Shown here piece by piece: positions 29,619-34,728 of a stretch of 64,000 bases of DNA (position 1 is its first letter; each line of letters begins with the position of its first letter). The stretch is from Tricharina praecox (lineage: Eukaryota), in assembly GCF_024521635.1 (NCBI RefSeq), contig NW_026250408.1:682001-746000 (forward strand), written 5' to 3'. A model generated the notes under the pieces. That model was not told the origin of the DNA, ran no database searches, and saw nothing but the letters and a program-made list of their open reading frames with translations. The position numbers and the translations under genes are program-made.

Positions 29619-31046
29619 ATGTCGGATCCTGATTTCCTCGGCGTACGAACCCTCCGCGATCTTCGTATTTGCCACAGTCACACGGAAAGCTGACGTTCCC
29701 CTCAGAGAGCGATCAAAATCGTCAAGAAGGCGATTGAAGAGGACAATGCCGGCAACTACGATGCGGCCTACCAGCAGTACCACGCGTCGCTCGAGCTGTT
29801 CATGCTGGCATTGAAATGGGAGAAGAGTGCCCAGTCCAAAAGTACCATCCGCGCAAAGCTCAACCAGTACATGGAGCGCGCGGAAACGCTCAAGGAACAT
29901 CTCAACAACGATCAGAACAAGAAGAAGCCGAGCAAGATGGGTGCGAATGGCTCCAGTACGGGTGGTGCGGGGGCGAAGGCGAAGGGCGACGACGGTGATG
30001 ACGGACTAGACGCCGAGTCTAAGAAACTGCGTGGTGCCCTTTCGGGTGCCATTCTAACTGAGACACCGAATGTCCGCTGGGAAGATGTTGCGGGTCTAGA
30101 TGCTGCGAAGGAGGCGTTGAAGGAAGCCGTTATTCTACCCATCAAATTTCCGCAGCTTTTTGCAACCGGAAACCGGAAACCGTGGCGCGGTATCTTGCTT
30201 TACGGTCCTCCGGGTACCGGTAAATCCTACCTTGCGAAGGCGGTGGCCACCGAGGCGAACTCCACTTTCTTCTCGGTCAGCAGTAGTGACTTGGTCTCGA
30301 AGTGGATGGGTGAGAGTGAGAGGCTTGTGAAGCAGCTCTTTGCTATGGCGAGGGAGAACAAGCCTGCTATCATCTTCATCGATGAGGTGGATGCTTTGTG
30401 TGGAACTCGAGGAGACGGAGAGAGCGAGGCGAGCAGACGTATCAAGACCGAGATGTTGGTGCAGATGGACGGTGTTGGGCACGACAGTTCCGGCGTGTTG
30501 GTCTTGGGTGCAACCAATATTCCATGGCAGTTGGACTCTGCCATCCGACGACGGTACGTTCCTGTCTGCAAGCCTACTGGGGGCTCCGGCTAACGGGAGA
30601 CCAGATTTCAGAGAAGAATCCACATTGCCATCCCCGACATGCGAAGTCGCGTCCGAATGTTCGAGCTCGCCGTGGGTAAGACACCGTGCGAACTTGTACC
30701 ACAGGACTTCCGAACGCTCGCCGAGATGTCAGAAGGCTTCACGGGTAGCGACATCAGCATCGTCGCCCAAGACGCACTGATGCAGCCCGTCCGAAAGATC
30801 CAAAGCGCGACGCACTACAAGCAAGTTCTGATGCCGGACGGATCAACGAAGCTCACTCCGTGCTCCCCGGGAGACCCGGGGGCCATGGAGATGACATGGG
30901 AGCAGGTGGACGGAGAGAGACTTCTCGAGCCATCGTTGACGCTGAAGGATTTCATCAAGGCGGTCAAGAACTCGAGGCCAACTGTCAGTAGGGAAGATAT
31001 TTCGAAGAGCGAGGAATGGACTCGGGATTTTGGAAGCGAAGGCTAA
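29619..31046 (+). CDS. VPS4: ESCRT AAA-ATPase Vps4; introns about 29643-29705 and 30554-30605
   Basis: MIT domain ([19 protein letters not shown]), Walker [19 protein letters not shown], Walker B IIFIDEVD, and C-terminal SRPTVS..DFGSEG. Confidence 0.97.
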
Positions 31047-31752: not shown

Positions 31753-33568
31753 ATGACTTACGCACTCCCCCAGTCCCACAAGGATGTTAGTCCGCCTCTT
31801 CACAACCATTGATTTCTTCTGCGTCTATTGAAGGCCAATTGACTCATGACATTTTCATGGCATTAGATGCTCGAGAAGTCTCTCCAGGAGACTGACCCTG
31901 AGGTCTACGAGCTCGTGGTATGTTCATAATCCCCATTGACCCTGCATTCTCAAGTCTTGACACTGACGTAACCCTCGCTTCCAGCAACGCGAAATCCAGC
32001 GTCAGCGTGAGAACATTCCTCTGATCGCTTCCGAGAACATCACTTCGCGCTCCGTCTACGATGCCCTTGGATCAGTTATGTCCAACAAGTACTCCGAGGG
32101 ATACCCTGGAGCCCGTTACTACGGTGGCAATGAGCACATCGACTCCGTCGAGATCCTTTGCCAGGAGCGTGCTCTCGCCGCTTTCGGCGTCACCAGTGAC
32201 AAGTGGGGTGTCAACGTCCAGTGCCTGTCCGGTTCCCCTGCGAACTTGCAGGTTTACCAGGCTATCATGCGCCCTCACGAGCGTCTGATGGGCCTCGACC
32301 TGCCCCACGGTGGTCATTTGTCCCACGGATATCAGACTCCTCAGAAGAAGTCAGTTATCCGCATCTCCTTTCTGCTTTTTGAAACTCATTCTGACTGTTC
32401 CCAGGATTTCTGCTGTGTCCACCTACTTTGAGACCATGCCCTACCGTGTCAACGAGGAGACCGGCATCATCGATTACGACATGCTGGCCAAGAACGCCGT
32501 CCTCTACCGTCCCAAGGTTCTCGTTGCCGGAACTTCCGCCTATTGCCGTGAGATCGACTACAAGCGCATGCGCGAAATCGCCGACTCCGTCGGTGCCTAC
32601 CTGATGGTTGACATGGCCCACATCTCCGGTCTCGTTGCCGCTGCTGTCATCAAGAGCCCCTTCGAGTATGCCGATATCGTCACCACTACCACCCACAAGT
32701 CGCTCCGTGGTCCCCGTGGTGCCATGATCTTCTTCCGTCGTGGTGTCCGCAAGGTCGATGCCAAGGGCAACAAGACCTTGTACGATCTTGAGAACCCCAT
32801 CAACTTCAGGTTTGCAACTCCGGTCATCTCTTCTTTCCATGCCTCGTTCCTGCCCCAAGATTCATATGATGAAAAACTTTCGGATGTAAATCATTGTCTA
32901 CCGATGGCGCAAAACCGTGTGGATATTTTCCGTTGCCTTCCTTCTGACCTATGAATCTTTCTCTCCAATTCTCATCACCGATTTTTGGAATCAAGTTTAT
33001 TGACTCGCCCACTAGTGTCTTCCCCGGTCACCAGGGAGGTCCCCACAACCACACCATCACTGCTCTGTCTGTTGCCCTGAAGCAGACCATGACCCCGGAG
33101 TTCAAGACCTACCAGCAGCAAGTGGTGAAGAACGCGAAGGCCCTGGAAGTCGAGTTCAAGCGTTTGGGTTACAACCTCGTCTCTGACGGAACCGATTCGC
33201 ACATGGTTCTCCTCAACCTGCGCGAGAAGGCCCTCGATGGCGCCCGTGTCGAGGCCGTCCTCGAGGCTGTCAACATCTCTTGCAACAAGAACGCCATCCC
33301 CGGCGACAAGTCTGCGCTCACCCCTTGCGGAATCCGTATCGGTACCCCCGCTGCCACCACCCGTGGTTTCTCGGAGCAGGACTTCGTCCGCGTCGCTGGC
33401 TACATTGATCAGTGCATCGCCCTGGCCAAGAAGATCCAGAGCGAGCTGCCTAAGGAGAATAACAAGCTCAAGGACTTCAAGACCAAGGTCTTTGCCGGTG
33501 TTCCCGAACTTCAGGAGCTCAAGAAGGAGATCTGTGCCTGGGCTTCCACTTTCCCCCTGCCCATCTAA
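31753..33568 (+). CDS. SHM2: Cytosolic serine hydroxymethyltransferase; introns 31786-31866, 31918-31984, 32350-32405, 32810-33015
   Basis: Motifs [33 protein letters not shown], the PLP-lysine motif [13 protein letters not shown], and [12 protein letters not shown]. No mitochondrial presequence. Confidence 0.97.
32862..32951 (+). ncRNA. snR52: Intronic box C/D snoRNA, snR52-like (predicted guide for the equivalent of yeast 18S Am420)
   Basis: C box ATGATGA at 32866-32872 and D box CTGA at 32944-32947. Flanking 10-bp inverted repeat AAGATTCATA/TATGAATCTT (32857-32866 / 32950-32959). The guide GTTGCCTTCCTT (32932-32943) is antisense to the conserved 18S sequence AAGGAAGGCAGC with one G:U pair. 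Confidence 0.9.
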
Positions 33569-34237: not shown

Positions 34238-34340
34238 AAAAGGAAACGGAAACGGAAAAGGAAAAGGAAAAGGAAAAGGAAAAGGAAAAGGAAAAGGACC
34301 AAGGAAACGGAAAAGGAAAGGAAAAGGAAAAGGAAACGGG
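34238..34340. repeat. (GGAAAA)n microsatellite
   Basis: Read directly from the sequence. Confidence 0.9.
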
Positions 34341-34728
34341 GAAAAAAGACTTTTGGATGTGATATACAACTGTGTTGAACGCAAAGTAAACACACAAAAA
34401 ACAACAGGACAAGACCAAAGACAAAAAAGATAAAACAAAAAGACAAAACCCCTCCCGAATTGCAATTGCAAGAATCAAGCATATGAAAACCCCAAGTACC
34501 ATACTACTAGTAACTAGCGTAGCCCATTTGTCACGAAACGAAAAGAAAAGAAAACGAGTTGAACGCCCCCTTGAAGTAAAGAACAGAAAAAAGAAAAAAG
34601 CAAAGAGAAAGAGAAAGAAAGAAAACAAAAAAAATCACTTTTAAAAACCCCAACCCCAGCCCGAAACCCCATTTATCCCAAGAATTCAAATTCATTTACT
34701 GCTTTTTTTTCCCCTCTCTCTCCTCTCC

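Follow-up and report, generated by a model that had tools for sequence, protein, structure and literature searches.

The host gene and its fourth intron

The window, by which we mean the whole 64-kb stretch of DNA that was analysed, carries on its forward strand a gene for cytosolic serine hydroxymethyltransferase (SHMT; SHM2, 31753-33568), recognized by an open spliced frame, by spliced contigs, and by the Pfam family PF00464, which matches exons 4 and 5 on either side of intron 4. The five coding exons (31753-31785, 31867-31917, 31985-32349, 32405-32809, and 33016-33568) specify a product of 469 aa, and the introns between them measure 81, 67, 55, and 206 nt, in that order. The initial annotation had singled out the last intron for its 206 nt and given the others as 56-81 nt; the upper bound stands, but the lower one is 55, off by one. 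Intron 4 (32810-33015, GT..AG, plus strand) is in phase 2 after codon 284. It is real: a joint skipping 206 nt is present in contigs of three RNA runs, and contigs of runs X1, X2, and X3 (three of four runs, from three studies) lack every one of the four introns, X1 and X3 being taken as RNA by guess and X4 (share 0.08) barely covering SHM2. The likely branch site is TTGAC (33000-33004, plus strand), with the A at 33003, the choice following the fungal branch-site consensus. The SHM1 paralogue of the same genome has no intron at the corresponding site.

The closest named SHMT proteins are from Wilcoxina (90%), Trichophaea (89%), Sphaerosporella (88%), Pyronema (82%), and Rhizina (80%). Since the nearest come from Wilcoxina, Trichophaea, and Sphaerosporella, which together with Pyronema we take to belong to the family Pyronemataceae, the fungus is Pyronemataceae-like. 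Upstream of SHM2, at about 29900-31046 on the same strand, is a gene that by eye has the look of a AAA ATPase, presumably of the Vps4 type; its coding sequence includes a chance C-box-like word at 29995. Downstream, 34240-34345 is a simple purine-rich repeat of GGAAAA-like units.

A Z13/snR52 box C/D snoRNA in intron 4

Intron 4 houses a box C/D snoRNA of the Z13/snR52 family (32860-32955, plus strand, as are all the elements described below). The Rfam model RF00335 (snoZ13_snr52) matches it over model positions 1-101 with 80.4 bits against a gathering cut-off of 47 (E = 2e-14 over the whole window), and this is the sole Rfam match above a gathering score in the 64 kb. The snR52-type identity proposed at the outset is thereby borne out, with the refinement that the family is the one modelled by RF00335; the budding-yeast model RF01195 reaches 19.2 bits, short of its cut-off of 45, and filing under the S. 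cerevisiae type was rejected on that threshold.

The terminal boxes are canonical. Box C (ATGATGA, of the RUGAUGA type) is at 32866-32872, at a distance of 56 nt from the start of the intron, and box D (CTGA) is at 32944-32947, from where it is 56 nt to the likely branch A and 68 nt to the 3' splice site. The 12-nt antisense guide, GTTGCCTTCCTT, occupies 32932-32943; boxes and guide are where the initial annotation had placed them. The internal boxes are variants, box D' reading CCGA (32901-32904) and box C' GTGGATA (32919-32925), and both are assigned from their alignment with the family consensus. Between boxes C and D' is a conserved CGGATGT element (32881-32887), recognized from the Rfam model alignment and from its complementarity to 18S rRNA. 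The mature snoRNA probably extends from about 32862 to 32950. The 10-bp flanking stem claimed earlier does form, its arms being 32857-32866 and 32950-32959, but neither the orthologous locus L034 nor the copies in ATP3 have this long stem, so it was discarded as a conserved feature. Folding energy was likewise set aside as evidence for a snoRNA (z of -1.54, with 13 of 200 shuffles folding equally well).

The snoRNA is wholly within the spliced intron, on the host strand, and at the usual distances from the splice sites; in Neurospora crassa, the intronic snoRNAs surveyed are mainly 41-60 nt from the 5' splice site (PMC2780460). The 16-mer made of guide and D box occurs twice in the 38-Mb genome, both times within a full snoRNA, and the reversed control pattern occurs nowhere in those 38 Mb. 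An independent Pol III unit was considered and rejected, a scan of 32301-33300 having returned one loose B-box-like word, inside exon 5.

The guide and its target

The guide forms with 18S rRNA of the same genome, at 412-423, a duplex of 12 bp including one G-U, and the D+5 nucleotide faces A416. The earlier assignment of an 18S target through the D+5 rule is thus reproduced on the genome's own rRNA, at a nucleotide which we take to be the equivalent of yeast A420.

Directly adjoining this duplex, 18S 406-411 is complementary to GGATGT (32882-32887) of the conserved element. A match to either 6-nt flank of the guide site arises in 1.7% of shuffles, and GGATGT is present in 48 of 50 distinct snoRNA cores (whose collection is described below). 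The complementarity is similar to the "extra base-pairing" described by van Nues et al. (2011; PMC3116282), a paper whose main text, in the passages available, is without snR52, and GGATGT is possibly a candidate for such a pairing, of 6 bp, beside the guide duplex. However, the RF00335 model pairs CGGA of the same element with TCCG (32929-32932) inside the snoRNA, and CGGAT, found in all 50 cores, is the more invariant word. A further point against the extra pairing is that fission-yeast snR52 sequences have retained the match to 18S only in part.

A complementarity search against the genome's own rRNA found no convincing guide before box D' of the SHM2 copy. Nor did it find a guide for LSU Um2921: no D'-adjacent complement is shared by the two copies of the snoRNA in this genome, the best ones having 9-10 bp with two G-U at unrelated sites. 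The word ATTGTC (32893-32898), which precedes box D', can form 6 bp with 18S 463-468, or 8 bp in the case of the ATP3 copy, and is perhaps the remnant of a second guide. As a second guide it was rejected, its register varying among loci and its presence being limited to 11 of the 50 cores; it is a weak lead. Among the rRNA genes themselves, there is a second rDNA type (C64:20667-31940 and C102), in which 3314 of 3365 large-subunit positions are identical to the repeats on C77. The 18S on C64 is in pieces with about 5.5 kb between them, which may indicate a degenerate copy, an insertion, or a second organism.

A second copy in ATP3 and traces in RNA

Genome-wide, RF00335 has exactly two matches, one in SHM2 intron 4 and one in ATP3. 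The latter (C42:21345-21445, which is 1501-1601 of locus L002, on the minus strand of that locus; 79.8 bits) is within the 222-nt intron 2 of the gene for the ATP synthase gamma subunit, of 294 aa, and its guide is identical to that of the SHM2 copy. Since this intact copy exists, deleting the SHM2 intron alone should leave A416 methylation in place.

In run X1, a separate 154-nt contig covers 32827-32968 of SHM2 intron 4 at a depth of 68, and another derives from the ATP3 copy at a depth of 130, the depth of the mRNA being 1422; depth is a poor measure here, and the SHM2 contig exceeds the predicted snoRNA ends, contigs carrying no information on ends. The shorter introns are an unfair control for the X1 contig because they are possibly too short to be retained as contigs. 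Runs X2 and X3, both of which cover SHM2, contain no intron-only contig. The X1 contigs are a hint that the snoRNA accumulates. A contig in which intron 4 is retained and joined to exons was found in none of the RNA runs, contigs being assemblies from which rare forms are dropped.

Hosts across fungi and the empty SCD6 intron

A pattern scan of fungal metagenome contigs gave 106 matching stretches, and hosts were counted in 80 loci among the matches listed. SCD6/LSM14 is the host in 55 of these, a DUF2408 gene in nine, ATP3 in four, a host with a short frame in four, and SHM2 in one; the remaining seven are mostly at contig ends. The loci are redundant, and after removal of duplicates and of five incomplete loci, with the two copies of the present genome included, 77 sequences reduce to 50 distinct cores, of which 37 are LSM14-hosted. 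In 53 of the 55 LSM14 loci, the splice donor comes just after DPA[IV][LI], mostly with one further glycine codon first. The single SCD6 gene of the present genome has an intron at this place, after DPAILG (L115 1440-1378, minus strand; C8), but at 63 nt it is too short for snR52, and it has no Rfam match. From the breadth of SCD6 hosting among these loci, which are without taxon names, we infer that SCD6 is the ancestral host. The suggestion that SHMT might host the snoRNA in filamentous fungi generally did not survive this survey: SHMT is the host in one of the 80 listed loci only, and most other SHM2 genes are intronless at the site.

Several other arrangements were seen among these loci. 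The DUF2408-hosted ones (L009, L021, L030, L051, L053, L058, L067, L078, and L080) look like another host switch, in another fungal lineage. In L010, L013, L014, and L032, snR52 is in an intron directly after an ATG, and the host is possibly non-coding; two frames of this fourth host that were scanned had no Pfam match, and its Atlas hits were under 0.8. Two of these four loci are just downstream of eRF1. A D' guide of the snR56 type is present in L010, L013, and L014, and the core of L032 is that of L010. Locus L049 has tandem snR52 copies, at 2022-2131 (69.2 bits) and 2425-2536 (60.8 bits), apparently in neighbouring introns of a host that has no evident coding frame.

Range of SHM2 and ATP3 hosting

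Gene calls that leave introns unspliced translate into the intron, which makes its content visible in protein collections, and the letters of snR52 were judged by eye from such translations. In a search with exon 4 and its read-through, 95 of 120 hits run on across the intron-4 site (some of these being spliced models), 20 break there, and five are unscorable. A rough filter classed 43 proteins as unspliced gene calls, and 42 of them have no intron at the site. Nine of the 20 breaking hits show snR52 letters, one of them being this species' own. Altogether, the letters were seen in SHM2 intron 4 of 10 relatives (eight proteins, P0005, and L034). The guide itself is visible in five of the 10, the other read-throughs ending earlier. 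The L034 copy scores 82.2 bits and has its boxes and guide intact in an otherwise diverged intron. In a FastTree tree of 124 SHMT residues rooted on SHM1, Wilcoxina, Trichophaea, Pyronema, Sphaerosporella, and Ascodesmis group with the 10 relatives in a single clade (local support 0.88), and the SHMT exons of these relatives are 84-97% identical to the one described here. Hosting by SHM2 was observed in no other group than this clade of Pyronemataceae and Ascodesmis. Outside the snoRNA clade, there are 10 intron-bearing SHM2 calls, which mostly end before any snoRNA could show. One sequence outside the clade, P0132, has an intron translation that hints at the snR52 words for boxes C, D', and C', with the guide changed or decayed.

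Hosting by ATP3 has a different range. It is common to the Tuberaceae-like loci L048, L059, and L072 and to the close relative L028; L048 is 93-94% identical to Tuber and Choiromyces. A search with ATP3 gave 120 hits, of which 64 lack the junction motif, about six of these being full-length or odd sequences. By eye, snR52 letters appear in eight ATP3 hits: five have Pyronema as their nearest neighbour, two are L048-like, and one is unplaced. This comparison consists of nearest-neighbour identities with eight sequences left out, and many calls in it end too early to tell. At the same place in Tirmania-like and Leotiomycete-like read-throughs, the ATP3 intron is short, and the intron is therefore older than its snoRNA.

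Origin and significance of the SHM2 copy

The reading that we strongly favor is that of an ordinary methylation guide released by splicing, whose family moved from SCD6 to an ATP3 intron within Pezizales and was then copied into the SHM2 intron in a narrower clade. The snoRNA would be co-transcribed with SHM2 by Pol II and would leave in the intron-4 lariat, to be freed by debranching and trimming, an established pathway that presumably applies here. Release by splicing, as the initial annotation proposed, accordingly stands as the likely route for an intron that is spliced in all three studies. The box C/D core proteins would bind the RNA, which would then guide 2'-O-methylation of 18S A416, possibly aided by the 6-bp extra pairing. 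As to history, a copy would have entered the older ATP3 intron, now common to Tuberaceae and Pyronemataceae-like fungi, and a further copy the SHM2 intron; the SCD6 copy would have been lost from this genome, with its intron remaining. This order of moves is suggested by the nested ranges of the hosts. SHM2 would thus be a strongly expressed carrier, redundant with ATP3.

A different course of events, rather improbable but the best placed of the alternatives, is that intron 4 and the snoRNA arrived together as one transposed intron, so that intron gain would replace colonization, an origin compatible with function. The lack of an intron at the site in 42 of 43 unspliced calls, in 95 of 120 exon-4 hits, and in SHM1 fits such a gain, as do the early ends of most of the 10 out-of-clade intron-bearing calls and the snR52-like remnant in P0132. 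However, those 10 out-of-clade sequences are interrupted at the same position, consistent with an older intron that other classes have lost, and the ATP3 intron that was colonized is clearly older than its snoRNA.

The initial annotation had gone further and tied the methylation guide to the enzyme that supplies methyl groups. Co-location is the only support for that tie, and the ATP3 copy has an identical guide. A broader form of it would have the SHM2 copy retained for coupling, either because guide supply follows one-carbon metabolism or because snoRNP assembly tunes the splicing of intron 4. We consider it unlikely, and equally so its metabolic version, in which ATP3 gives a basal supply and the duplicate was selected so that the level of the A416 guide additionally tracks one-carbon status. 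Retention of the SHM2 copy in at least 10 relatives, despite an ATP3 copy in the same group, speaks for coupling; read-through of intron 4 meets a stop after 48 codons (P0121), so that retention would give a premature stop, and cis effects of snoRNAs on host splicing have been published for mammals (PMC10324135). On the other hand, the ATP3 copy has the deeper contig in X1 (130 versus 68), intron-retaining contigs joined to exons are missing, in assemblies from which rare forms drop out, and of the at least five hosts of the family, four, SCD6, ATP3, and DUF2408 among them, have no evident one-carbon role. The link between methyl supply and the guide is thus probably absent; were coupling true, methyl-group supply would be wired genetically and directly to ribosome methylation.

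A silent or decaying SHM2 duplicate, with the ATP3 copy alone at work, is very improbable: the two copies are redundant and an intronic contig appears in one of three covering runs, but their scores are equal (80.4 and 79.8 bits), boxes and guide are intact here and in L034 despite its diverged flanking intron, and the copy is retained by relatives whose SHMT exons are 84-97% identical.

With a splicing-released, relocated guide as the preferred reading, the snoRNA itself is ordinary, and its value is in a readable history, with at least five hosts, a vacated SCD6 intron, and nested ATP3 and SHM2 ranges in Pezizales. Pure drift would not most simply predict that a redundant copy persists throughout a family-wide clade. 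Either copy, or both, can be removed, and the pair is thus a clean natural experiment for telling "constrained drift" from selected co-expression. In practical terms, deleting or recoding the SHM2 or ATP3 introns in these fungi removes a guide RNA, the effect of a single deletion being masked.

Relation to known systems

Intronic snR52 is an already described state outside budding yeast. CD42 of N. crassa is an intronic RNA of 92 nt, assigned to 18S-Am417, for which there is evidence from northern blotting and from reverse transcription (Liu et al., 2009; PMC2780460), and snR52 of Schizosaccharomyces pombe, SPSNORNA.29, is intronic and assigned to 18S-Am423 (Diao et al., 2014; PMC4138321). As far as these sources were available, both share with the present snoRNA the same boxes, the 12-nt D guide, the 18S site (A416 here), a single guide, and the intronic location; the passages and supplement rows on them name no host. 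They differ from the arrangement found here, in which there are two copies, in SHM2 and ATP3, and an empty SCD6 intron. The initial annotation had allowed that its arrangement might be known elsewhere, which is so for an intronic snR52, but not for the SHMT host in the literature found.

In Saccharomyces cerevisiae, SNR52 is transcribed by Pol III, as sources available in part state (PMC10557570), in keeping with the contrast drawn at the outset, and has LSU Um2921 as a second target (PMC3511168). In the model alignment, the D guide and D box of S. cerevisiae snR52 (RF01195) are identical to those described here. However, the body has diverged (19.2 bits), and the present snoRNA is intronic instead of Pol III-transcribed and has no Um2921 guide.

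The two families snR52 and snR56 make up snoRNA clan CD_19 (Canzler et al., 2018; PMC5824354), whose D' guide is absent from the window copy. The main text of that paper, so far as it was available, has no mention of Tuber, Pezizomycetes, or a host gene; its supplements, where the history of CD_19 and genomic locations are given, may already hold these coordinates. No paper naming SHMT, ATP3, or SCD6 as a host of snR52 was found in a search whose range excluded those supplements and most of the subscription literature.

The snoRNA is thus a new member of the curated family RF00335, and its host switching is an instance of a known process. In the parts available, Hoeppner and Poole (2012; PMC3511168) describe mobility of snoRNAs among broadly expressed hosts, or "constrained drift", as a general pattern, and intragenomic mobility has also been published elsewhere (PMC8476143). 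In the primate example of Hoeppner and Poole, too, a snoRNA left one broadly expressed host gene and came to reside in introns of two more. The present case differs from it in being fungal, in that the vacated intron is still present, and in that the new hosts are metabolic enzymes instead of ribosome or translation genes.
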